Below are positions 21,644 to 34,727 of a stretch of 64,000 nucleotides of DNA, in pieces. A program made the position numbers and the translations under genes. Under the pieces are notes generated by a model. It was not told the origin of the DNA and did not search any database. It was given only the letters and a program-made list of their open reading frames with translations. Source of the stretch: a virus. Each line of letters begins with the position of its first letter. Position 1 is the stretch's first letter. The stretch lies in IMG/VR virus record IMGVR_UViG_640753022_000005, positions 874 through 64,873 of that record. One strand, 5' to 3'.

Positions 21644-22140
21644 TACGGCACCCTCGGTAGTGATTCTGGGTCTCTGTTGTCAGGATAACCCGTTACAACG
21701 ATATCCAGCCACGAATCCCACGGCGGCGGCAGCTCAACAATGATGTCGTCGAACTCTTCGTCAGGGTTATAGAGGTGGTTGGCTATAACGGTACCAGTCC
21801 AGGTCACCACGCCGCCGTCGATACTGGTTTGCACCGGCATCTGCGTGAAGTGAAGCTCCTGCAACTGGAGGCCACTGCCGCCAATGTTGATGGGCATCCG
21901 AAACCAGTTAACTCCGCGATTCAGGTAGTTCGGGCTGCGCAGCCACTGCTGGAAAGCCCGCTCCTGGTCCAGCGTGAACATCCACGTCAGCGACCATGTG
22001 GTTTTCAGGTCGTCAGTAAGGTTCTGGAAAATAGCCGGGCCGACTGCTGGCTGGTCAGTCTGAAACCCGGTGTCGAAGGTCATATTTTTGCTGGCTTTCT
22101 GCGCCAGCGGCAGCCAGTCAGGATAGTCGATAATAGCCAT
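21643..22140 (-). CDS. Minor / distal tail protein (M-like)
   Basis: Immediately after the tape measure gene; YPDWLPL...WFRMPI. Confidence 0.65.
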   Translation of the reverse strand: MAIIDYPDWLPLAQKASKNMTFDTGFQTDQPAVGPAIFQNLTDDLKTTWSLTWMFTLDQERAFQQWLRSPNYLNRGVNWFRMPINIGGSGLQLQELHFTQMPVQTSIDGGVVTWTGTVIANHLYNPDEEFDDIIVELPPPWDSWLDIVVTGYPDNRDPESLPRVP

Positions 22141-25100
22141 CAGCCCTGCCCTCTTGGCGTGCGTTTAACGTTCATGTTGCTGGTTATGGCGTTGCTGATT
22201 GGACCGCCATTGTTCAGGTCGGCGACTATTACATCCACTGTCACGCCGCCATTGCCATCAGTTCCGGCCTGAGCATCTACAGATGACGATGTGTAGTTCT
22301 GGATATTGATTACCACCCCGCCACCTGCCCCCGCTGTCATTTCCTTATTGCTGATCACCCTGCCGTTGTCGCCCGGTATCATGTACTGCTTACCGGTGCT
22401 GGCCTGGTAGATTTCAGGCATCCCGCCCTCGCCTACCTGATACATCCCACCCGCTGATACCGGGCCGCCGTTTTTGCGCTTGCCAAGCAGATTCGCACCA
22501 ATTACGCCCGCGACCGCACCGAGCCCGATCGCCGCAGCGGTGCCCATAGAAGCGATAGAAGACAGGATTGCCGCAGGCGTCCAGGCCGCCGCCGTGGTGG
22601 CAGCGGCTGCGGTGCTGGTGGCCGTTTGAGTAGCAACAGCAGCAGTCTGAACCGCCGTTACCGTGCCGATGGCCGCTGTCTGTGCCGCCTGGCCCATGAT
22701 TGCTGACTTAACCCACTCAACACCCATTTGGACGAAGCTATTGATGAGGCTGTTCAGGACGGTGTTGCCGACAGAGCGGAGGGCATCGGAAGCGGTCATA
22801 CTGCCCGTTATGATCCCGGTCAAAGCGTTAGAGGCATTTCCTGCCAGTGCATCAAAGGACGCCGCCAGCGCTTCATTGCCTGCACTCTGGTTACGGAAGA
22901 TCTCCCACTGTGCAGCGATGCGAGCCTGCTCGTACTCTCTGTCAGCAGTAGCGCGCAGCATAAGTGCGTTCTGGTGAGTAATAATCCCCTGCTGCTCGTA
23001 TGCCTGAATAAGCGCGAGTTTACGGGCATTTTCATTCGCCAGTTGCTGCACTGGGTCCACGCCGCCAGCAGCTTCCTGTTGCGGGCTGACGGCCTGATCG
23101 GCACGGATTTTCGCAAGGTTGGCCTGGTGGGTCGCTTCCAGTCGTTCAGATGTCTGATTGAACTGCTCCTGGCTTATTTTCTTCGCAGCCAGTGCGGTTT
23201 TCAGATCCTCAACATCCTGCTTATAGCTGGCGTTTTCACGCGCTTCTGGCAGGAGTTTCTCGGCTGCGGCCTGCGCTTTGAGTGCTGCCGCAGTGTCATA
23301 TGCCTGAGCTGCATACTCGCCAGCTAAATCTATCTGGGCTTGCGTTGCCGCTTTACCAAGTGATTGCTGAGCGTTAAGAATGGATTGCTCTCTGCTTAGC
23401 TCCTGAGTTGTCGCCCCAGCCAGCATTGCTTTCTGACGCAAGTTTTCAAGCTTCTGGGCTACTGATTCTGCGGCTGATGCTGAACGCTTGTCTTGCTGCT
23501 CTCCCTTTCTCTGAGCCTCCTGGCGGGCTTCTTCTGCTTTCTGAAGGTCGTAGTTTTCTCCGGCCAGATCGCCAGCCCTTGATATCTGGTTTGGGTTATC
23601 AGTAACCTTCGCTGCCTGCATTCTGGCTTTTGTCACTGCTCTTTGGCGTTCATCCTGAATTTTCAGTAACTCGTTCTGCTCTTCGAGGTTAAGAATTACT
23701 TTGTCGCCATCAGCGGTAGGAGGAGAAACCTGCAGCGCTTTGGGGTTGAAGTTTTGTCCAGCCTGATTCGCCCGTGTTATTTCATCGGCTGTTAATCCGA
23801 ATGCTTTCGCAACCGCCCCCTGCACCCTCTCAAGAGTCGAGCCTTTCTCAATCAGTCCATCATGCACCCCCATAGATGTGAGCATGTTGTTTGTTAGGGT
23901 TCTGTTTGCTTCCGCTGCCATGTCCTGAGTTTTTGCCAGTTTTTCCTGAGCGTCAGCTAAATCTCTACGCTTTTGGGCCAACTGGTTTGCGGCATCTTTT
24001 GCCTTAATCACGAAACCATTATTTTGATCTTCGGTAACCCCGTATTGCCTTGCAAGCGTTGTATATTTCTCATAATCTGATTGCAGTCCCGAAATGGTAT
24101 CTTTCAGATCGCTAATAGCTTCCTCTTGCGCCCTAATTGAAATATTGGCGTCAGCTATCACCCCCCTGAGTTTGGTATTGTTCATCTCCTTCATTGAGGC
24201 TTTAACTTTATCCAAGCTATCGGCAAAGCGGATTGCTTCTTCTCTGGCTTGCTGTGCTTTCTGCCAGAAATAGAATATCGCTCCTGCTGCGAGCATCGCC
24301 GCGCCAGCAGGGCCACCTATAAGAGCAAGCGCACCACGAGCCATTCCAATACCAACTGATGCTGCGCGAGCAGTTGTCGCTGCCCGGGCTGATGCCGCAG
24401 CCTGGGCGTTTTCAGCCTCAGCAAGGGCAATAGATGCGGTAGTCGCCCGTGTTTTTGCGGCAATAAGAGCATCCATTGCCAACATCTCTGCAGCGCTACC
24501 TTTTGCCACGTTATATTCAGCTTGGGCCAGCGCAAGAGAAGAAAGAGCAGCCTCTTTATCAGCAAGAGCTTTACGCTGAACAGAATTAGCGGCTACCAAA
24601 GCAGCCTGTGCCGTCTGATTGTCTGCTACAACCTGCTGACGTGATGCTGCGATATCAGCAATTTTCGCTGAGGTAGCCATGGTCAGCGCGCCGACATACC
24701 GCGCGCCCATTACGCCGGCAACAATCGTGAGCGTAGTGCTGAGAACGTCCAGGTTTTCACTCAGGGAAATGACTGAGTCACTGAATATTTTGACGCCAGT
24801 TTTTACAGTGGCATTCTCACCAAAGAACTTCGTTATGTTGTTGTTGGCAATTTCAAGAGACTGGCTGATCGTTGCAGTAGTTTTAGCGAACTCCTGTCCA
24901 ATTTTATCGCCCTGGGAGAGCAATCCATTCACGATCACATCAGTGGTTAACTTACCCTCTGCAGCCATGTTTCTGAGAGCACCAATGCTGACATTCAAAG
25001 AGTCAGCAAGAGCAATCATGAGCCGGTTACCCTGCTCGTTCACAGAGTTAAATTCATCACCTCTTAAAGCGCCGGACGCCAGCCCCTGAGCAAGCTGAAT

Positions 25101-25622
25101 GATTGCGTTGCTCGCCTCCTCGGCTGTTGCCCCTGACACCACAAAACCCTGGTTAATAATGGTTGTCAGCCTGGTGATGTCCTCTACACTTACGCCGTAG
25201 CTCCTCGTTGAGCGCTCCAGTCGTGCATATAGCGTGGCGGTGGCATCAAGACCAGAGCGGGTCTTTTGCGAGATGTCGAAAACACGCTCTGTGACATCAG
25301 CCAGTGTTTCAAACGGCGGTACGGAATCCCTGACTGCGTTTGCCAGTTTATTACTCAGGTCCTGCCATGCCTGGGCATATGCGCCAACCTGCTGGACAGA
25401 AAGAGCTGCTATGAGCGCTTTCGCGACGCCAGTTAAGCTGGACATAGTGCCTTCAATCGAAGACAGGGATCGCTCAGTGCGGTTTAATCCCGCCTCAAGA
25501 CGACCCATGCTACCGTTAAGCCCATTCAACGCGGCATCAATATCCCGGCGTCCCTGAAGGATCCCGGCGGTGTCCATGTCAACTTCATAAACAATCGTTC
25601 CAGCGCTGACAGTACCAGCCAT
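22140..25622 (-). CDS. Tail tape measure protein
   Basis: 1160 aa, Ala/Gln-rich; tape-measure domain ALASGALRGDEFNSVNEQ. Confidence 0.95.
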   Translation of the reverse strand: MAGTVSAGTIVYEVDMDTAGILQGRRDIDAALNGLNGSMGRLEAGLNRTERSLSSIEGTMSSLTGVAKALIAALSVQQVGAYAQAWQDLSNKLANAVRDSVPPFETLADVTERVFDISQKTRSGLDATATLYARLERSTRSYGVSVEDITRLTTIINQGFVVSGATAEEASNAIIQLAQGLASGALRGDEFNSVNEQGNRLMIALADSLNVSIGALRNMAAEGKLTTDVIVNGLLSQGDKIGQEFAKTTATISQSLEIANNNITKFFGENATVKTGVKIFSDSVISLSENLDVLSTTLTIVAGVMGARYVGALTMATSAKIADIAASRQQVVADNQTAQAALVAANSVQRKALADKEAALSSLALAQAEYNVAKGSAAEMLAMDALIAAKTRATTASIALAEAENAQAAASARAATTARAASVGIGMARGALALIGGPAGAAMLAAGAIFYFWQKAQQAREEAIRFADSLDKVKASMKEMNNTKLRGVIADANISIRAQEEAISDLKDTISGLQSDYEKYTTLARQYGVTEDQNNGFVIKAKDAANQLAQKRRDLADAQEKLAKTQDMAAEANRTLTNNMLTSMGVHDGLIEKGSTLERVQGAVAKAFGLTADEITRANQAGQNFNPKALQVSPPTADGDKVILNLEEQNELLKIQDERQRAVTKARMQAAKVTDNPNQISRAGDLAGENYDLQKAEEARQEAQRKGEQQDKRSASAAESVAQKLENLRQKAMLAGATTQELSREQSILNAQQSLGKAATQAQIDLAGEYAAQAYDTAAALKAQAAAEKLLPEARENASYKQDVEDLKTALAAKKISQEQFNQTSERLEATHQANLAKIRADQAVSPQQEAAGGVDPVQQLANENARKLALIQAYEQQGIITHQNALMLRATADREYEQARIAAQWEIFRNQSAGNEALAASFDALAGNASNALTGIITGSMTASDALRSVGNTVLNSLINSFVQMGVEWVKSAIMGQAAQTAAIGTVTAVQTAAVATQTATSTAAAATTAAAWTPAAILSSIASMGTAAAIGLGAVAGVIGANLLGKRKNGGPVSAGGMYQVGEGGMPEIYQASTGKQYMIPGDNGRVISNKEMTAGAGGGVVINIQNYTSSSVDAQAGTDGNGGVTVDVIVADLNNGGPISNAITSNMNVKRTPRGQG

Positions 25623-25641
25623 AATCTAATCTCCGGGCAAT

Positions 25642-25665
25642 AAAAAACCCCGCCGGAGCGAGGTT
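25642..25665 (-). terminator. Moron terminator
   Basis: AACCTCGC-TCCG-GCGGGGTT-TTTT on the minus strand. Confidence 0.7.
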
Positions 25666-25691
25666 ATGGTTTAATGGTTCTCTTAATCAAT

Positions 25692-26288
25692 TTAATTGCA
25701 GAGTTTACCCCATAGGGATTCAAACTCTTGGCTTCCATCATCTATTGATGATTGACCGCTAATTGATATATATCTTGTTTTACCTGCATAAGCACCGAAG
25801 CTGTTTTTTGCGTTTACGTACCCGCAAATAGCCCCGTCCTTACCATCTCGCTCATCAGAGAACTCTGCAGAAGATGCGTCCTTAAGCGAGGACTTAACTG
25901 ACTCTTTTGCGTCATAAGTCCGGCTAAACTTCTCTTCTTCCTGTGCAATTACTTGTTTTTTTAAACCATCCCTTATCTCTTCATATTGTTGTCTTTCTAC
26001 ATAAGCGTCCCCAAAAATAGGAGTTTTAGAGTTCACCCAAAAAAGAAAACACACATTCGCAGCTAATGAGGCAACTAGAAAGCCAACGGCACAAAAACGC
26101 AAAGTGCCTTTTCTCTCTGAACTTGACAGTCGATTATTAAACTCAGCTTTTTGACCAACCTTGGCAAATACATAACCAATGAGCAGGAATGATCCGATTA
26201 TGAATACCAGCGATATAGGTTCTCTTATAGCGAAAGTACAAGTAACAACCAAAAAAATAAAAGCCAAAATTACAAAGAATTTGTTCAC
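25692..26288 (-). CDS. Membrane moron (3 TM segments + soluble C-terminal domain), candidate superinfection exclusion
   Basis: GTG start at 26288 with RBS; AT-rich; own promoter and terminator; C-terminal CGYVNAKNSFGAYAG motif. Confidence 0.7.
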   Translation of the reverse strand: MNKFFVILAFIFLVVTCTFAIREPISLVFIIGSFLLIGYVFAKVGQKAEFNNRLSSSERKGTLRFCAVGFLVASLAANVCFLFWVNSKTPIFGDAYVERQQYEEIRDGLKKQVIAQEEEKFSRTYDAKESVKSSLKDASSAEFSDERDGKDGAICGYVNAKNSFGAYAGKTRYISISGQSSIDDGSQEFESLWGKLCN

Positions 26289-26320
26289 TTCCCTATCCCC
26301 ATCAGTAATTGATGAGACCA

Positions 26321-26349
26321 ATCCTAGAGAAATATCACCGTAATGGAAA
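26321..26349 (-). promoter_or_regulatory. Putative sigma70 promoter of the moron
   Basis: TTTCCA-17bp-TAGGAT. Confidence 0.45.
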
Positions 26350-26361
26350 GCAACTAAGCAT

Positions 26362-27051
26362 TTACGCATTCACAGTTTTTGAAGCAGCAAGCCTTTTCTT
26401 CTTGCGGGCAAGGTAGTCATCAGCAACGGAATCATATTCTTCCCGGGTGAACCCTTTCTGCTCTGGGTATTTGGCTGCTATCAGAAGCTGAAATTCTGTC
26501 ATGGTAAGCTGCTCGGCTTCCGCCCGGCTCATGCTGAAGTGATTACGCGCGGCGCTGATGTACTCGAAGGCGTTAAACTCAGAGGTCGCCTGGGTGCTTT
26601 CATGGCGCTGCAACTTTCTAACCTTCGCTTTGCCAATAATGCCGTGTGTGATTAGTGACTGCGCAATAACAATCATGTCGAATTCATCCATGGCACCGCG
26701 GCGCATCTTGAATGCCTTCCCTGAGGCTTTGGCGATCCGGAGTTCACCGATTAGGGGAGTCACATCGTCGTTACAGCAGGCGCTAATAACAGTCATCGCA
26801 GCAATCAGGGCTTTACGTCCGTAACTTGTCGTCCTGATATGCTGAACAAGCCATCCAGGCACGGCACCATAAGCATCTATTGCCGACCGTATTAAGTCAG
26901 ATACCTCATCGTGGTGCAGGTCGTAGAACGCCTGCACAATCTCCTTAGGTTCGCCGATACGCGTCATGTTAATGAACGATGGCCGGAAGAAATAATCCTC
27001 ACCATCAACGCTGATGAGGCACTCACCAATCTCTTTAAGCGGGGTATTCAC
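26362..27051 (-). CDS. Tail assembly chaperone (DUF6246-like)
   Basis: PLKEIGE..YFFRPSF..MTMTEFQLL; lies between tail tube and tape measure; GTG start overlaps the upstream TGA. Confidence 0.7.
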   Translation of the reverse strand: MNTPLKEIGECLISVDGEDYFFRPSFINMTRIGEPKEIVQAFYDLHHDEVSDLIRSAIDAYGAVPGWLVQHIRTTSYGRKALIAAMTVISACCNDDVTPLIGELRIAKASGKAFKMRRGAMDEFDMIVIAQSLITHGIIGKAKVRKLQRHESTQATSEFNAFEYISAARNHFSMSRAEAEQLTMTEFQLLIAAKYPEQKGFTREEYDSVADDYLARKKKRLAASKTVNA

Positions 27052-27641
27052 CGGTAAAGCCTCCACGCTTTTCTTCTCTCGGTTCTCGGCAGGCCATCAA
27101 AAGCCTTTTCCACTGGCATCTCGTCGGCATGGTCGACGAGGGAGTAGCAAGGGTAAATAACATCCCTTCCCCATGCGTCTCCGAGCGCATAGTCCGCCGG
27201 TTTACGCTGGCTCCAGTTCATCAGGATGCGGTTAATTCCGCTGGCTGGCAGCGCATAGCAGACGCCGTGAATCAGTCGGTTCAGGGTGATGTAATCCGCA
27301 CGGCACCTGTCAGCAGCAATAAGACGTTCAGCAATCTGCTGCTGATACTGCGGAGGGCGACCAGTGCCGAGGTAAAAACTGATTAGCTCATCAGGGAATC
27401 TGGCGCACCATTCAGCCGCAAGCTCTGCAAAGGCATCTACCGGCTGGGCATCATCTTCCAGTACGACCACTCGCGCTGACTGGCCGGAAGCCCACTTAAC
27501 GGCCCTAAGGTGATTCCAGTTGGCTCCGTGGTCGGCGTCATCGATAAAAAGTTGCGCATTAAGGCTCTCAGCAAGCCTGTGAGCTTTTTCACTGCGTCGG
27601 TGATGGCCTACCACTGCGAATGTCACTTGTGCTGCCACCAT
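27048..27641 (-). CDS. GT-A glycosyltransferase (GT25-like LEDD motif), soluble
   Basis: GANWNHLRA..VVVLEDDAQP..HGVCY..SLVDH; no TM or signal peptide. Confidence 0.7.
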   Translation of the reverse strand: MVAAQVTFAVVGHHRRSEKAHRLAESLNAQLFIDDADHGANWNHLRAVKWASGQSARVVVLEDDAQPVDAFAELAAEWCARFPDELISFYLGTGRPPQYQQQIAERLIAADRCRADYITLNRLIHGVCYALPASGINRILMNWSQRKPADYALGDAWGRDVIYPCYSLVDHADEMPVEKAFDGLPRTERRKAWRLYR

Positions 27642-29080
27642 GCTGTTTCCTTGCCGATGCCGTTGGTCTTAAACACCGTGTGCACTTTCGGGCCGGTAAT
27701 AACTCGGTCACCGAAAGACTTCGCCACGATGCCGAATGCGATCATGTCGCCAACCGCCCTGGCTGCCCCCTCTTTCTTCCAGAAGCGCTCCGACTCAATG
27801 CGGTAGTAAAGCCGCACGATGCGGTGAGCAAACTCCATGACATCTTCGCGTAATCCGCCAAGTAATCCGGCATTCAGCATGGTGTCGCTGGCGTACTGCT
27901 TCAGGAATGACTGGTATACGCGCTCAGGATGATTTTTGATGGCCCATTCATCGGAATATGTCTTTGGCTCAGAGCCGACATAAATCACGCCAGGCTGCAT
28001 TTCTTCCCATGGTGAGCGAAGCATCTCGACATCAGTCCCGTCGGTACACCAGACGAAACGATATTCCGGATGCTCGCGCAGGTGCTGCCAGATATGCAGC
28101 CAGCGCCGGAAGTAAACGTTCATATCCACAACAGGCACGCGAACCGTCGTCTGGCCTGGCGGTGAGTATTCAAACTCGTCAGCGAGAATGACTGCATCGG
28201 CCCCTTTAATCGATTCTGACCATCTGGCGATAAGCGACTGATCCGGTTTCATTCTGGCTCCTCGCTGCGGGTCAGGATGACTGGTCAGCAAGGTTGTGAT
28301 GACGGCATTACATTGTCTGCGGTATGGTGCCCACCCGGTATAACCGGAGTCGCGGCGCTCATTGTGTATTTTTACGTTGTTGCTGACCTGCCGCTCGCGC
28401 TCTGGCTTGGGTACTGAGCGCTCTACCGACTCATGCTCATCCAGCGAGTAAATCAGCTTCTCAGAGCCAATAACGTCGGCATATGCCCATGAGGTAAGCC
28501 CGGCGTTATGAATTCGCAGTGCGAGGTCTGAATGCTCGTACATACCACGGCCGTAAACCGGGTCGAACCCGCCGACCCTTTCAATCGCACTGCGGTGGTA
28601 GTAGAGCATCACGCCGCGCTGGCCGGTGTAGGCGATGTGTTTTTCATCGCGGTACAGGACTGAAAGGTCATTCAGCTTGCGTGGGCCAGCCAGGTCGAGA
28701 AACTGATATGCCAGATGAGGCTCAGGAGACTCGATATACGGAATATGCCAGCCATCTGCAATCGGCCATGCGTCATCGTCCCACAGAAACAGATGCTCAC
28801 AACCGGCATCAATCAGGGCTTCAATGCTGGCGTTTTTGGATGCCACGATGCCCTGAGATTGTTCGTGACGGATAAGCCTTGCGTATTCTGGTGCTGCGGC
28901 GGCCGGCACCGAGCCATCATCGACAATCACAACCACTGCGCCGGGCGGCAGATGTTTCTGGTGCTGCTCAAGAGCGCGTGCCAGAACGTCTGGCCGGTTG
29001 TGGGTGGTGATGGCAATACCAATGCCAGATGAGCGCGCCGACGCTGGCTCGTAGGGAATTCCGTTTATCAGAACCTGCAT
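27623..29080 (-). CDS. Two-domain glycosyltransferase: GT2 plus a second GT-A domain
   Basis: N-term ITTHNR, VDDGS, WDDDAW, EHSDLALR (GT2); C-term CTDGTDV, LNAGLLGG, GDMIAF, terminal HK. Confidence 0.85.
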   Translation of the reverse strand: MQVLINGIPYEPASARSSGIGIAITTHNRPDVLARALEQHQKHLPPGAVVVIVDDGSVPAAAAPEYARLIRHEQSQGIVASKNASIEALIDAGCEHLFLWDDDAWPIADGWHIPYIESPEPHLAYQFLDLAGPRKLNDLSVLYRDEKHIAYTGQRGVMLYYHRSAIERVGGFDPVYGRGMYEHSDLALRIHNAGLTSWAYADVIGSEKLIYSLDEHESVERSVPKPERERQVSNNVKIHNERRDSGYTGWAPYRRQCNAVITTLLTSHPDPQRGARMKPDQSLIARWSESIKGADAVILADEFEYSPPGQTTVRVPVVDMNVYFRRWLHIWQHLREHPEYRFVWCTDGTDVEMLRSPWEEMQPGVIYVGSEPKTYSDEWAIKNHPERVYQSFLKQYASDTMLNAGLLGGLREDVMEFAHRIVRLYYRIESERFWKKEGAARAVGDMIAFGIVAKSFGDRVITGPKVHTVFKTNGIGKETAWWQHK

Positions 29081-29093
29081 ATCTCTGTCTCAG

Positions 29094-29111
29094 AAAGGGG
29101 GCTTGCGCCCC
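29094..29111 (-). terminator. Weak terminator-like hairpin after the tail-tube gene
   Basis: GGGGC-GCAA-GCCCC followed by only CTTT. Confidence 0.45.
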
Positions 29112-29119
29112 GCTGTGTT

Positions 29120-29614
29120 TTAGCTGGAAGGTTCGGAGGTATCAGTAACCTGCACGGTGCTGGAGTCACCCACTTTGAACTCAGTGGAGAAGGTCACGAT
29201 GTCGTTAGTGCCGCCGTCAGAGCTGAGGGCAGTGATAACCATGTAACCCTGAAAGGTCACCGGGCCGTATTCCATGCGAACCCAGATACCAGGCTGACGC
29301 TTGGCCTTAAGCTCGCTAGCGAAGTACTTGATGAAACGACCGATGCCGTACTGGTCGAGCTTGTCGTTTTTACGCACCTCACCTTCAAAGCTGATGGTGA
29401 AGTCGGAGTTTGTGGTGATGCTCTCGACAAAGCCGCCGCCATCGTCAGCATCACTGGTCACGGTGTTCGGGCTGAAGTCGAACCCTTTTGACGTACCGGC
29501 GGCCAGCGCTTTCCATTCCGATTCAAGCGGCACCGTATCCGGGCAGCCGTCGGCAACTTCAAGCACAATAGCGCCACCGAACAAGCGTTCGTTGCTGGTT
29601 GGGCAATTAGCCAT
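29120..29614 (-). CDS. Major tail (tube) protein
   Basis: MANCPTSNERLFGGAIVLEVADG..AGTSKGFDFSP; start trimmed to 29614; ends VTDTSEPSS. Confidence 0.85.
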   Translation of the reverse strand: MANCPTSNERLFGGAIVLEVADGCPDTVPLESEWKALAAGTSKGFDFSPNTVTSDADDGGGFVESITTNSDFTISFEGEVRKNDKLDQYGIGRFIKYFASELKAKRQPGIWVRMEYGPVTFQGYMVITALSSDGGTNDIVTFSTEFKVGDSSTVQVTDTSEPSS

Positions 29615-29637
29615 GTTACTTCCTCTTTGACGTTTAA

Positions 29638-30021
29638 TTAATCGCCGTAGGTGGCGACGAATTGAAGCCGATAGACAAGGCGTCCATCGGTTGTAAGAAC
29701 TGGTGCGGGCATAGCGCCCATATTCTGGAGATAACCGACGCAATCATCGGTCATGGGGTTTTGCTGGACGTAATCGACTATCTGCTGCACGCGCTCATCG
29801 ACAAAAGCATTGCCACCTTTTGCGCCGATAACGTCGACCAGGATGTACTGCTCGTTGCCGAGGCCATTGCGAATATTGCTGCCGCCATTTGGACGAAACA
29901 CCATGAACCGATCAGATTCAGTGCCTGAGTCTGTCCACATCAGCAGTTGAACCTTAAAGCCATCCGTCAGGCCAGCATTCATGAAGTAGTTACGCACGCG
30001 CGTATGCATTGGCGGATTCAT
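29638..30021 (-). CDS. Tail terminator-like protein
   Basis: Size and position just upstream of the tail-tube gene. Confidence 0.55.
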   Translation of the reverse strand: MNPPMHTRVRNYFMNAGLTDGFKVQLLMWTDSGTESDRFMVFRPNGGSNIRNGLGNEQYILVDVIGAKGGNAFVDERVQQIVDYVQQNPMTDDCVGYLQNMGAMPAPVLTTDGRLVYRLQFVATYGD

Positions 30022-30386
30022 AGAGACAGCTCCTGCTTCATAACCCGGTCGATTTGCTCTCGGGTGTCCTCAAAGCCCTTGGTAAGGAACTCTTTGCGGG
30101 CAGTGGCGCGGCGGAAGGTTTGCGGAACATTCGGATCGTGAACGTAAACCGCATAGTTGGCCGAGTAGCCCACCCTTCCAGTTACCTTTGTGCCGTTGGC
30201 GTCAATCTCCCGGAACTGGCTGTTCAGAAGCGTTGATGTGTCGATTGGGGTGTATAACGCTGCCTGAGCGCCACCGATTAACAGCGCTGACTGCACGGCC
30301 CTGACGACCTTGCGCCCCTGCACGTCATTAATCAGCGCGTCCAGATTGGCTTTCGCCTGGGCAATGCCGCGAACTTTACCGGCCAT
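30018..30386 (-). CDS. HK97 gp10-like tail completion protein
   Basis: TPIDTSTLLNS..YAVYVH..KEFL motif. Confidence 0.7.
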   Translation of the reverse strand: MAGKVRGIAQAKANLDALINDVQGRKVVRAVQSALLIGGAQAALYTPIDTSTLLNSQFREIDANGTKVTGRVGYSANYAVYVHDPNVPQTFRRATARKEFLTKGFEDTREQIDRVMKQELSL

Positions 30387-30387
30387 A

Positions 30388-30738
30388 TCAGACTCCCGTT
30401 ATGATGGCGTAGTCGTCGGCAATCCGCTCGAAGGTGTCTTCATAGCGAAGCACCTGCTGAACCTCATCAGCTCCGGCTTCTTTCGGGTCAGCCAGGTCGG
30501 AAATGCCAATCAGCACATAGTCGCCAGTCTTAGCCAGTGCGTACTCAGTCCAGACTGTGTTTTTCGCAACGATTTCTGAACCAATACCGCCGATGCGCTT
30601 GCTCAGGCCGCCTTCATAGCCGCAGAGAATTTGCTCAGGCGCTGCATATCCCAGCGGGTCGCCGTAATAGTCCTGACCATCCAGCCTTCGCCATATTGTC
30701 GCTGTTGCGGTGTATGACCAGTTAGCTACTGAGCTCAT
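30388..30738 (-). CDS. Head closure / head-tail joining protein
   Basis: Size and position in the neck gene block. Confidence 0.55.
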   Translation of the reverse strand: MSSVANWSYTATATIWRRLDGQDYYGDPLGYAAPEQILCGYEGGLSKRIGGIGSEIVAKNTVWTEYALAKTGDYVLIGISDLADPKEAGADEVQQVLRYEDTFERIADDYAIITGV

Positions 30739-30806
30739 AGGTGGTAATCCTCATACTCCCACGGCTCCTCGTCAGGATTTTTAGGCTTCTGCTCTTTCTC
30801 ACACAT
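30735..30806 (-). CDS. 23-aa micro-ORF MCEKEQKPKNPDEEPWEYEDYHL
   Basis: GGAGG RBS; TGATG overlap with the upstream gene and ATGA overlap with the downstream gene. Confidence 0.55.
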   Translation of the reverse strand: MCEKEQKPKNPDEEPWEYEDYHL

Positions 30807-31186
30807 CAGCAACCTCCAACGACATCAAAGAAGCCAACACGACTACCCACGTCAATCGGCAGCGACGCCGTACATCCGCTCTTATCCAGTGACAGAAGAG
30901 CGTCACGCATCGAAAGCACATCGCCGGTATAGTCGAACGACCGCGACGCCCCTGAAGGCGCTGACTGCGATTTAATGCGCTGACTGTATGCCGTTAAGGC
31001 CATGAGAGAGACGGCATAGACCTGAATCAGCACGACGTCACATTCGTCGTAGCCAGACGCCTCCAGGCACTGCTCAATGCTGCTGAGCTTGCAGAGATAT
31101 GCGTCGATGATGAAATCAGGGATGGAGTAACCTAGGGATGACAGCTGCTGTTTAACCTGCGCTGCTGTGATTGGCGTGATAGCCAT
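30806..31186 (-). CDS. Head-tail connector / adaptor
   Basis: Position after capsid; RIKSQSAPSGASRSF motif. Confidence 0.6.
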   Translation of the reverse strand: MAITPITAAQVKQQLSSLGYSIPDFIIDAYLCKLSSIEQCLEASGYDECDVVLIQVYAVSLMALTAYSQRIKSQSAPSGASRSFDYTGDVLSMRDALLSLDKSGCTASLPIDVGSRVGFFDVVGGC

Positions 31187-31188
31187 GG

Positions 31189-31386
31189 TCACTCCTTATC
31201 TTTGGGTTTCCGTCCGCGCTTGGGCGTAGCGACTTCCAGCTGGCGCTCTTCCAGGTACTCAGCCAGCCCGGCATTAACCCAGCGTTCGGCGATTGAATCG
31301 GCAACCTCTACCTCAGAGCCAATCTCCAGCTTCTGGAAATTGGCACCGGCAAAAAGGTTTGATGAAATTACTTTTACCAGTGCCAT
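31189..31386 (-). CDS. Small head-associated hypothetical protein
   Basis: 65 aa, RBS, follows capsid gene. Confidence 0.6.
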   Translation of the reverse strand: MALVKVISSNLFAGANFQKLEIGSEVEVADSIAERWVNAGLAEYLEERQLEVATPKRGRKPKDKE

Positions 31387-31395
31387 ATCGCTTCC

Positions 31396-32481
31396 TTAGC
31401 TGGTCGCTTCGCCGGTGGCGTGAACCACGGAGTAGTGACCGTTGATGTCGGTTTTGACCATCAGGCCCATTGCGCCCCAGGTGCGCCAGATGTAGTCGCT
31501 GTTGTAGAACGGGCGCGGGTCGGCAACGGTGCCGATGGCCTGGCCTACAATCGGAGCAACTACGCCTGCCTGCAGCGGAACAATCAGGATTTCGTTACCC
31601 TGCAGCTTCGCGTCTTCTTTAATGGCCGCGATACCTGTCAGGGTCAGGAGCTCCTGCAGCACGGTGCGGGACTGGAAGTTGTCGCTGTAATACTGCTCCC
31701 AGTTGGAGACGATTTCAGAGGAAACGTACCAGGTCTGCTGGCCGTACTGGTAGTTTCCAAGCTTCAGCACATCGCGCAGACGGATTGCTTCGGCGCGCAT
31801 GGCTTTTGGATCGGTGCTGATCGCCATGTTTACGTTCAGTGTCACCTGAGCGACACGCTCATCGGCGCGGAAACCCTTCCAGGTCAGGCCGTCGAACTGC
31901 ACATAGTTGCCTGCAGCATCGCGGAAGCCATCCCACATGTAATCAACGTACTTACGCTGAACATCCTCTACAGAACCGCGCTGTGCATCAGCCTGAGACT
32001 GAAGCGCTGACGGGCTGTTGAAGATGGGATCGCGCCAGGTGAATTTAAAGCCGGAATCGTGGATCGGAACCATCGTGCCGTCGAATGTGTAGGTGCGCGC
32101 ATCGAGAGCGGCACCAATCTGACCCGACATGGAGGTGTGAGCCCAGCCACGGCCACCGGTGCGAGCGTAGTCGTAACGTGATTGCTCGATACGTACAGAG
32201 CGGGACAGCGGCATCAGGTCGTTCAGCAGAGTAAATTGCGTGTTCGGCTCGAACTGCTGCAGCACAGTAGTATCGAAAGCGCGATACAGGCGGCGGATAT
32301 CGTCTACTGCGTTAACAGCATCAAGACGACCGCTGTCTTCACGGATACCCTGAGCTCGCCCCAGAAAATCGGCGGCTGCCTGTGCAGTAGCATTACGTTC
32401 AGCCTGCAGCGCGCGGAATTGGGCCTGGTTTACTTCCAGGTTGCCTGTCTTCTCGCCAAGAGATGTGGAATATACAAACAT
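31396..32481 (-). CDS. Major capsid protein
   Basis: 361 aa after protease/scaffold and decoration genes; ends HATGEATS. Confidence 0.85.
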   Translation of the reverse strand: MFVYSTSLGEKTGNLEVNQAQFRALQAERNATAQAAADFLGRAQGIREDSGRLDAVNAVDDIRRLYRAFDTTVLQQFEPNTQFTLLNDLMPLSRSVRIEQSRYDYARTGGRGWAHTSMSGQIGAALDARTYTFDGTMVPIHDSGFKFTWRDPIFNSPSALQSQADAQRGSVEDVQRKYVDYMWDGFRDAAGNYVQFDGLTWKGFRADERVAQVTLNVNMAISTDPKAMRAEAIRLRDVLKLGNYQYGQQTWYVSSEIVSNWEQYYSDNFQSRTVLQELLTLTGIAAIKEDAKLQGNEILIVPLQAGVVAPIVGQAIGTVADPRPFYNSDYIWRTWGAMGLMVKTDINGHYSVVHATGEATS

Positions 32482-32493
32482 TAATCGGTCTCC

Positions 32494-32922
32494 TTACTTG
32501 ACCACTACGCGCAGCAGGTCGCCTGCAGCAACGGTTGTCGGTGTGTCTTCTTCCACGAACAGGACTGCGGATGCAGTGCCGCCGGAAGTGACGCGACCGT
32601 TAGAGATAGCCAGTGCCTGGCCTTTGTTATAGGTGCCGGCAGCAGCGCGGACGTTCAGGAACATGCCTGGCAGTAACTGGATGCCGACGACCAGCTCGTT
32701 AGCGGGGATGACATCATCGACGCCCATGCAGCGCAGATAGTCATAGTTCGCCACATACAGCACAGCGCTTTCGCCGCCGTTGGTGGATGCGGTGAATTTG
32801 CCGTTGGTGAATACGCCGATGGTGCCCGGCTGAGTCGCTGCGGCTGCACCGCCTTCGCGGTTCAGAAGCGGATTCGGAAATACGCCGCCCGCGTGAATTA
32901 CGTGTTTACCGTCTTTAGCCAT
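32494..32922 (-). CDS. Head decoration protein
   Basis: 142 aa Gly/Ala/Val-rich, between scaffold and capsid genes. Confidence 0.7.
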   Translation of the reverse strand: MAKDGKHVIHAGGVFPNPLLNREGGAAAATQPGTIGVFTNGKFTASTNGGESAVLYVANYDYLRCMGVDDVIPANELVVGIQLLPGMFLNVRAAAGTYNKGQALAISNGRVTSGGTASAVLFVEEDTPTTVAAGDLLRVVVK

Positions 32923-34379: not shown

Positions 34380-34727
34380 ATGATAAGGTTCACCGCAATG
34401 GCGATTACGGCACTAATATCCTTTGGAGCCCATGCTGACTATTACGGGGGTGAAGATTTAGCGAAATGGAGTGATGCGCTGATGCGCGCCAAGGCTAACA
34501 CAGCAGTAGAAACTGATTACGCTGACATTGGTAAGCTCAGAGGCCTGGCAATTGGAGTTCATGATATTTTTGAGGGCACTTTAGTTTGCTCACCTGACAA
34601 CGCAACTAACGGACAAATTGTCGATACCGTAGTTGTGTATGTCAGAAATCACCCAGAAAAAAGGACTGAGAACGCCTCCAGGTTGGCATATGAAGCTCTT
34701 TCTACCGCATATCCATGTAAAAAATAA
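34380..34727 (+). CDS. Rap1a/Tai-like exported immunity protein (antisense moron)
   Basis: Signal peptide (..GAHA/D); VCSPDNATNGQIVDTVVVYVRNHPE..LAYEALSTAYPC matches the Rap1a pattern. Confidence 0.7.
   Translation: MIRFTAMAITALISFGAHADYYGGEDLAKWSDALMRAKANTAVETDYADIGKLRGLAIGVHDIFEGTLVCSPDNATNGQIVDTVVVYVRNHPEKRTENASRLAYEALSTAYPCKK

Follow-up and report, generated by a model that had tools for sequence, protein, structure and literature searches.

The provirus record IMGVR_UViG_640753022_000005 of IMG/VR comprises 64,875 nucleotides (nt), of which we analyzed positions 874 to 64,873; all coordinates given below for this prophage are those of the resulting 64,000-nt stretch, hereafter the window. 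The late structural operon of this Cronobacter-type prophage, with all its genes on the minus strand, contains a pair of genes for soluble glycosyltransferases, here called GT-A and GT-B, located between the tail-tube gene and a DUF6246 gene in the tail-chaperone position. From the gene structure, the homology and fold of the two proteins, the co-variation of the pair with a short C-terminal tag of the tail tube and the boundaries of the module, we propose that the pair is probably a virion O-glycosylation module, whose enzymes would act late and in the cytoplasm on the C-termini of virion proteins. The features on which this proposal depends are the following (aa, amino acids; GC, guanine and cytosine).

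29120-29614 (from ATG), minus strand: tail tube (major tail protein), 164 aa; phrog_853 (E 1e-73), weak Pfam match to Phage_tail_2; ends VQVTDTSEPSS
29123-29146, minus strand: proposed O-glycosylation tag TDTSEPSS, the last 8 codons of the tail-tube gene, read from the sequence
29098-29111, minus strand: GC hairpin GGGGCGCAAGCCCC, downstream of the tail-tube stop and upstream of the GT-A start, with a weak T-tract
27623-29080, minus strand: GT-A, 485 aa; Pfam PF00535; phrog_1579 (E 1e-237)
27048-27641, minus strand: GT-B, 197 aa; phrog_854 (E 5e-69); EDD motif
27046-29145, minus strand: pair-specific segment (tag codons, hairpin, GT-A and GT-B), delimited by blastn against relatives lacking the pair
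26362-27066, minus strand: DUF6246 gene in the tail-chaperone position (Pfam DUF6246, E 1.5e-82), its start coupled to the GT-B stop
31396-32481, minus strand: major capsid protein, 361 aa; DUF6260, matching the major capsid protein of PDB 5wk1 (E 2e-22); ends HATGEATS

A first-pass annotation of the window had placed GT-A and GT-B between the tail-tube and DUF6246 genes with a mutual overlap of 19 nt, and this arrangement was confirmed to the base. The TGA stop of GT-B indeed overlaps the GTG of the DUF6246 gene (as GTGA), the longest open reading frame (ORF) of the latter beginning at 27066, 15 nt upstream of this GTG. The C-termini quoted for the tail tube (VTDTSEPSS) and for the capsid were as claimed when read from the sequence, and nothing other than the hairpin separates the end of the tail-tube gene from the ATG of GT-A. 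This hairpin is probably an attenuator lowering the expression of the downstream genes; the HK97 and HK542 records annotate similar terminators after their major tail genes. We also agree with the earlier statement that the pair has no obvious moron promoter, as we recovered no sigma-70-like promoter in 25500-32600 for 5.3 expected.

Kinship with mycobacteriophage genes and occurrence in enterobacterial phages

In their abstract, Freeman and colleagues reportedly placed the glycosylation on the C-termini of the tail-tube and capsid subunits, and are said to have seen little sign of virion glycosylation across the wider phage population. GT-B was 36% identical to gp110 of mycobacteriophage Che8 (BLASTP, E 3e-29), a protein presented in PMC12363180, which cites Freeman et al. 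(2023), as an essential glycosyltransferase for mycobacteriophage capsid glycosylation; the virion glycosylation genes of cluster F are credited in PMC12363180 and PMC11256854 to the same work (Freeman et al., 2023, Cell Host Microbe 31:1216). Che8 has gp108 and gp109 in the place of GT-A. These two proteins were considered as relatives of GT-A and ruled out (BLASTP E > 0.05).

The relatives of GT-A were found elsewhere among the mycobacteriophages. A tblastn search of the phage collection with GT-A hit 607 records, Mycobacterium phages accounting for 567; the records matching over at least 80% of its length numbered about 380, with 43-46% identity among the matches listed, and a 478-aa cluster F enzyme was 41-46% identical to GT-A over the full length. 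In the 80 cluster F loci fetched with gp110, GT-A and a gp110-like gene occurred as a pair in 74, the Che8-type trio with gp108/109 being present in only 4. The window pair thus appears to be what corresponds, in enterobacteria, to the most frequent pair of cluster F. Cluster F phages such as PMC (gp100 and gp103), Wee and Kimberlium have both genes of the window, in an identical order and late in the genome, and in both cases the capsid and the tail tube are Ser-terminal. The two systems differ in several respects. The pair is located at the right genome end in cluster F but inside the tail operon in the window, whose host is a Gram-negative enterobacterium; the window tags are EPSS and EATS whereas those of Che8 are of the Gly-Ser type (NKTGS for its capsid and YSDGS for its tail tube); and virion glycosylation is, for the window, a prediction from the genes. 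In PMC, gp100 and gp103 are separated by a small ORF and a gene annotated as a kinase (L003, 4431-5156), whereas the two enterobacterial genes overlap directly. In the papers that we could search, actinobacteriophages were the only phages described as having their virions glycosylated by enzymes of their own, the demonstrations known to us being confined to mycobacteriophages, and we found no report for phages of Gram-negative bacteria.

The closest isolate to the window was Cronobacter phage ENT47670, whose gene order and tags are those of the window and whose DNA is 88.6% identical. We also recovered the pair in the HK97-like phages HK542, ECP1, ENT39118, mEp390 and Fraca, the GT-A of ECP1 being 70% identical in protein to that of the window and the GT-B of the HK542 lineage, taken from viral contigs, being 57-64% identical. 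In the maps of HK542, ECP1 and ENT39118, the pair is flanked by the lysis genes on one side and by HNH/terminase on the other, in the late transcript. It is separated from the tail-tube gene by about 8 kilobases (kb) in the HK97-like phages, whose tags are of the Gly-Ser type, in contrast to the tail-operon position and the non-Gly-Ser tags of the window. Homologues at 63-97% identity bore the names of Cronobacter, Enterobacter, Citrobacter, Klebsiella, Salmonella, Kosakonia, Serratia, Pantoea and Sodalis. In ENT47670 and the HK97-like phages above, both genes are annotated only as glycosyltransferase, glucosyltransferase or hypothetical.

At E <= 1e-30, the relatives of GT-A formed 266 clusters (50% identity), and most of the best 150 of these aligned across nearly all 485 aa, indicating that the two-domain layout of GT-A is widely conserved. 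Such conservation is relevant to the idea that the pair has no function or is decaying, having been carried into the tail operon as cargo, which would fit its proximity to HNH endonuclease genes in HK97-like phages. However, besides this number of clusters aligning near full length, both ORFs remain intact, no change in the catalytic motifs is seen between the enteric and actinophage members and the translational coupling with the neighbours has been kept; we consider the cargo explanation very improbable.

Folds and catalytic residues of the two enzymes

The motifs singled out in the first-pass annotation, TDGTDV, LNAGLLGG and GDMIAF in GT-A and LEDD in GT-B, were all found in the translations. 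The AlphaFold2 (AF2) model of GT-A, built on 42 diverse homologues, had a mean predicted local distance difference test score (pLDDT) of 93.8 and its best PDB matches were two-domain enzymes, so that the two GT-A domains claimed for this protein hold at the fold level. With the whole chain as query, the top matches in Foldseek (E about 1e-12 to 1e-8) were PmHS2 (8vh7, a Pasteurella heparosan synthase), K4CP (2z86, the E. coli K4 chondroitin polymerase) and human COLGALT1 (9evj), all with tandem GT-A domains like our protein, but the identity was just 10-13%, the domain orientation differed and the root-mean-square deviation was 13-15 Å. GT-A may possibly polymerize a chain, its likeness to the polymerases being at the fold level only.

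The two halves of GT-A had distinct affinities. The N-terminal domain matched Pfam GT2 (PF00535) with 27.3 bits for a cut-off of 23.3, over residues 22-107 only, and residues ~14-250 aligned best with the catalytic domains of polypeptide N-acetylgalactosaminyltransferases (ppGalNAc-Ts; Z about 18). Residues 251-485 (VIA-align) gave Z of 16.4-16.9 with alpha-1,3-galactosyltransferase, ABO GTA/GTB and BoGT6a, which are retaining GT6 enzymes; a sequence-level family match was sought for this C-terminal domain and none was found, the GT6 likeness being one of fold only. The earlier suggestion of a second domain of the LH3/PLOD type was not borne out, as GT6 enzymes lead for these residues in the fold comparison. 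No chain of LH3 itself was listed for the GT-A model; the only entry of this kind was a chain of ColGalT1, from its complex with LH3, which Foldseek ranked 46th. Across the 42 homologues, D55, D101, D103 and H183 of the first domain, which contains a DXD motif, were invariant and D102 nearly so; in the second domain, D347, D350, N403, G405 and M446 were invariant and D445 was present in at least 90%.

GT-B was modeled as a small GT-A fold (AF2 pLDDT 82.7). Its nearest structures were mimivirus R655, POMGnT1, COLGALT1, GnT-I and ppGalNAc-Ts. The proposal that GT-B is GT25-like stood at the fold level, COLGALT1 being among the top matches (E 1e-5, template modeling score 0.55, ranked behind mimivirus R655 and POMGnT1), but found no counterpart in profile scans, in which GT-B had no Pfam or NCBIfam match; the best hit of a profile search against the PDB was to mimivirus R655, with E of only 0.41. 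Between the enteric and the mycobacteriophage members, E62-D63-D64 were invariant, and 40 alignment columns, including EDD and DHAD, were invariant across both host phyla. Given the folds and the conserved catalytic residues, all three catalytic domains of the pair look active. Protein O-glycosylating GT-A enzymes are among the fold neighbours of the pair, namely ppGalNAc-T (Z 18), POMGnT1 and COLGALT1.

Some of these affinities could also suit enzymes that remodel a glycan of the host envelope (lipopolysaccharide core or O-antigen, enterobacterial common antigen or capsule) through peripheral action on lipid-linked intermediates, thereby mediating superinfection exclusion or preventing the progeny from re-adsorbing to lysed cells. 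The N-terminal domain of GT-A passes the threshold of GT2, a family that holds many polysaccharide enzymes, the best whole-chain fold matches are the capsule polymerases PmHS2 and K4CP, and PHROGs assigns both families to the category "moron, auxiliary metabolic gene and host takeover". However, neither a transmembrane segment nor a signal peptide is apparent, as stated in the first-pass annotation (the highest 19-residue Kyte-Doolittle mean is 1.22 in GT-A and 1.13 in GT-B), and there is no GtrA/GtrC-like partner. Moreover, a promoterless site in the late structural operon would mean the wrong timing for lysogenic conversion, and the pair is common to phages of mycobacteria (36-46% identity), whose envelope is entirely different. 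Envelope remodeling would also leave the co-variation of the pair with the virion C-terminal tags (see below) unexplained, and we regard it as unlikely. Glucosylation of the O-antigen by a Gtr-type system of lysogenic conversion was considered separately and rejected on the lack of a hydrophobic segment (maximal mean 1.22) and the late-operon site.

Another conceivable substrate is the phage DNA, which would be glycosylated in the T-even style against restriction. Phrog_854 is named "glucosyltransferase" in PHROGs, but none of the fold neighbours listed for the two models is identified as a glucosyltransferase of DNA. The addition of sugar to DNA requires a hydroxymethyl-pyrimidine pathway. 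Judging by the fold neighbours listed, we hold this explanation to be extremely unlikely.

Virion C-termini with and without the pair

To compare loci of the lineage of the window, we used the 80 IMG/VR loci whose tail tube was at least 84% identical to that of the window; 78 of them were scorable. They were distributed as follows.

Loci with the pair (n = 20): tail tube of 164 aa ending DTSEPSS or DNDEPSS; GT-A, GT-B and DUF6246 downstream
Loci without the pair (n = 58): tail tube of 245-247 aa; DUF6246 directly downstream
Contig-truncated loci (n = 2): tail tube of 164 aa; downstream genes beyond the contig

The 164-aa tail tube ending in EPSS was thus a feature of every pair-bearing locus (20 of 20) and of no pair-less one (0 of 58; Fisher p = 5e-19, shared ancestry being uncorrected). 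The capsid is only about 4 residues longer with the pair than without it: it ends HATGEATS in 19 of the 20 pair-bearing loci and HASS, YAHS or FASS in the pair-less ones. In the window, the capsid and the tail tube are the only Ser-terminal products among the approximately 40 minus-strand ORFs listed across the prophage, and the capsid is a possible second acceptor, judging from its sequence.

The additional residues of the pair-less tail tubes correspond, where scanned, to an immunoglobulin (Ig)-like domain. In the four that we inspected, the shared N-terminal domain continues past D(T/S)(D/E)EP into a longer C-terminal part, and the two that we scanned (L036 and L038) have a C-terminal Big_2 Ig-like domain (Pfam E 2e-19 and 1e-9). 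When the window was aligned by blastn with four pair-less relatives (L029, L036, L037, and L038), homology stopped at about 29145 (29142-29156) and resumed at 27045; in these relatives, about 335 nt replace 27046-29145 and complete the 245-247-aa tail-tube gene. These breakpoints indicate that a single cassette, comprising the two glycosyltransferase genes together with the hairpin and the 8 codons of the tag, stands in place of the ~335 nt of the relatives. This physical linkage between tag and enzymes is the strongest argument provided by the window for the tail tube as the putative substrate. The Ig-like domains of lambda gpV, of HK97 gp12 and of the Big_2 type (C-terminal domains in all cases) occupy the same site as the window tag, at the tail-tube C-terminus outside the tube; where the relatives have a domain of ~80-85 residues, the window has instead an 8-residue tag and two enzymes. 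Ig-like tail-tube domains are dispensable for assembly.

We observed a similar pattern in the HK97-like lineage. The 156-aa tail tube ending ASGS, which has no Ig domain, was almost always accompanied by the pair (in all cases where the contig reaches), whereas the 234-aa HK97-type tail tube, with an Ig domain (I-set/Ig_3), was found in 53 loci without the pair and 5 with it. The capsids of the pair-bearing loci are of three types, all Gly-Ser-ending (SSGS; STGAGS or TGSGS; and protease-capsid fusions ending NQGS or GAGS), and those of the pair-less loci end GGGA, PAGA, GAGA or FSAD. More generally, ORFs ending in Gly-Ser represented 141 of 910 in the pair-bearing loci vs 7 of 819 in the pair-less ones, the adaptor protein being an exception to this trend as it ends in Gly-Ser with or without the pair. 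Large head-region ORFs of some pair-bearing HK97-like prophages (455 aa, or 640-650 aa with an N-terminal extension; L216 4504-5871 and L125 3764-5698) were read as protease-capsid fusions and end GAGAGS or NQGS.

These comparisons also bear on the possibility that the target of the enzymes is not a virion component but another protein or a small molecule of the infected cell, e.g., a host factor or a defence sensor. Protein-glycosylating fold neighbours name no target, and an enzyme made late could use any cytoplasmic substrate. Nevertheless, the nearest characterized relative acts on virion proteins, the pair and the tail-tube tag have been exchanged physically as a single cassette, and the capsid and tail-tube tags follow the pair in a second lineage in which the GT genes are 8 kb away from them. 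A target outside the virion appears improbable to us.

Expression, proposed mechanism and significance

The pair was located in the late transcription unit in every context seen. In the window, the remaining genes of the region discussed here are the following.

Between the capsid and tail terminator genes, minus strand: connector genes
29638-30021, minus strand: tail terminator
25692-26369, minus strand: 225-aa ORF, phrog_16400, in a low-GC patch between the DUF6246 and tape-measure genes
22140-25622, minus strand: tape measure

Four RNA-seq runs from four studies contain the prophage, and in these the GT genes belong to long contigs that run on into tail and head genes without a change of depth. 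In three of them, a single contig extended across the tape measure, the GT genes, the tail tube and the head genes, with depths of 73, 66, and 40. This continuity of the RNA contigs at equal depth is weak evidence against lysogen-specific expression of the GT genes and no proof of late timing. An antisense gene of the head operon (34380-34727, plus strand), labeled Rap1a-like in the first-pass annotation, formed its own RNA contig in three of the four runs, with a depth 3-27 times that of the late genes around it, which fits expression in lysogens. In run X10, we also observed a contig covering 25690-27198 at about three times the depth of the adjacent contig containing the GT and tail-tube genes. 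The 225-aa ORF of the low-GC patch has a GC content of 0.40-0.44 vs ~0.55 around it and may be a moron.

The first-pass annotation had considered the pair as late cytoplasmic enzymes glycosylating the virion in the manner of Che8, and this reading is supported by the homology with gp110, the cluster F pair and the co-variation with the tail-tube tag. The kinship with the mycobacteriophage enzymes and the position of the Ig-like decoration in the relatives both suggest that the tail, and perhaps the head, is probably decorated with sugars. The acceptor sites, enzyme order, sugars and timing of expression in the scheme that follows are those that we infer from these observations. Translation of the late, Q-dependent structural transcript would yield GT-A and GT-B in the cytoplasm, at a level held below that of the tail tube by the hairpin, and the two enzymes would draw on the nucleotide sugars of the host. 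GT-B, the Che8 gp110 homologue, would most likely add the first sugar to Ser in the exposed C-terminus of the tail tube (TDTSEPSS) and would probably act on the capsid subunit too (ATGEATS). The two catalytic domains of GT-A, of which the ppGalNAc-T/GT2-like one is probably inverting and the GT6-like one probably retaining, would then use host UDP-sugars to extend this sugar to an oligosaccharide or, possibly, a repeating chain. The glycan would project from the tail tube at the site of the Big_2 Ig-like domain of the relatives, and could serve in shielding, stability or adhesion.

Several observations weigh against virion glycosylation by the pair. The split between 20 and 58 loci is probably the result of one evolutionary event. 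The EPSS and EATS tags of the window differ from the Gly-Ser ends of Che8 and the HK97-like phages. The capsids of the pair-less relatives also end in Ser, which makes the capsid tag weak evidence in the lineage of the window; its terminal Ser was accordingly dropped as an independent marker there. The pair-bearing locus L015 has a capsid ending GANLA. Outside the lineage of the window, HK97 (L170, 4028-5185; also L169) lacks the pair, yet its capsid ends SSGS, which could be either a co-opted ancestral tail or the trace of a recent loss of the pair, and five pair-bearing HK97-like loci (L183, L199, L216, L231, and L233) retain an Ig-bearing tail tube. The depth of an RNA contig is a flat average and a poor measure of expression, and the libraries may contain DNA. 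Finally, no glycan has yet been reported from any enterobacterial phage.

Some of the loci just mentioned have further features of their own. In L015 (3243-4340 and 7001-9567), the same tagged tail tube and pair are associated with a different head module, and only the tail is likely to be modified, judging from these sequences. L183 and L199 hold both GT genes, while L216, L231, and L233 have only GT-B within reach; the capsid-position ORFs of all five still end in Gly-Ser (SSGS, AAGS, and GAGAGS).

Considering the site at which the glycan would project, we propose that a sugar decoration would here replace a protein decoration. The tail tube, and partly the capsid, would have two interchangeable decorations, either a fused Ig-like domain or an enzymatic glycan on a Ser tag, and the tag and the glycosyltransferases would form one mobile cassette that took the place of Ig-like domains on independent occasions in two or more enterobacterial lineages (the ENT47670-like one, with Big_2, and the HK97-like one, with the I-set type). 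The five loci with GT matches and an Ig-bearing tail tube imply that this exchange on the tail is frequent, not obligatory. We put forward this more general scheme tentatively, as somewhat less than probable.

What is new here is the presence of the pair in a tail operon, the exact boundaries of the cassette, the exchange of Ig-like domain for putative glycan in two lineages and the Ser-ending tags that are not Gly-Ser. A pair of mycobacteriophage type occurs in prophages of many enterobacterial genera, with matching candidate acceptor tags and a clean pattern of gain and loss, and the question can be tested in the E. coli phages HK542, mEp390, and ECP1 and in Cronobacter phage ENT47670. If the pair does glycosylate virions, the two enzymes and a tag of 8 residues would give a compact tool with which to O-glycosylate proteins in the cytoplasm of E. 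coli. For many temperate enterobacterial phages, virion mass and surface chemistry would be wrongly predicted from sequence alone, and glycans may alter the antibody recognition, stability and adhesion of gut phages. If the switch between the two decorations is also real, glycan-coated virions would be common among Enterobacteriaceae prophages, and the glycan would inherit the role of the Ig-like domain, for instance in weak adhesion to surfaces or mucus, or in shielding.

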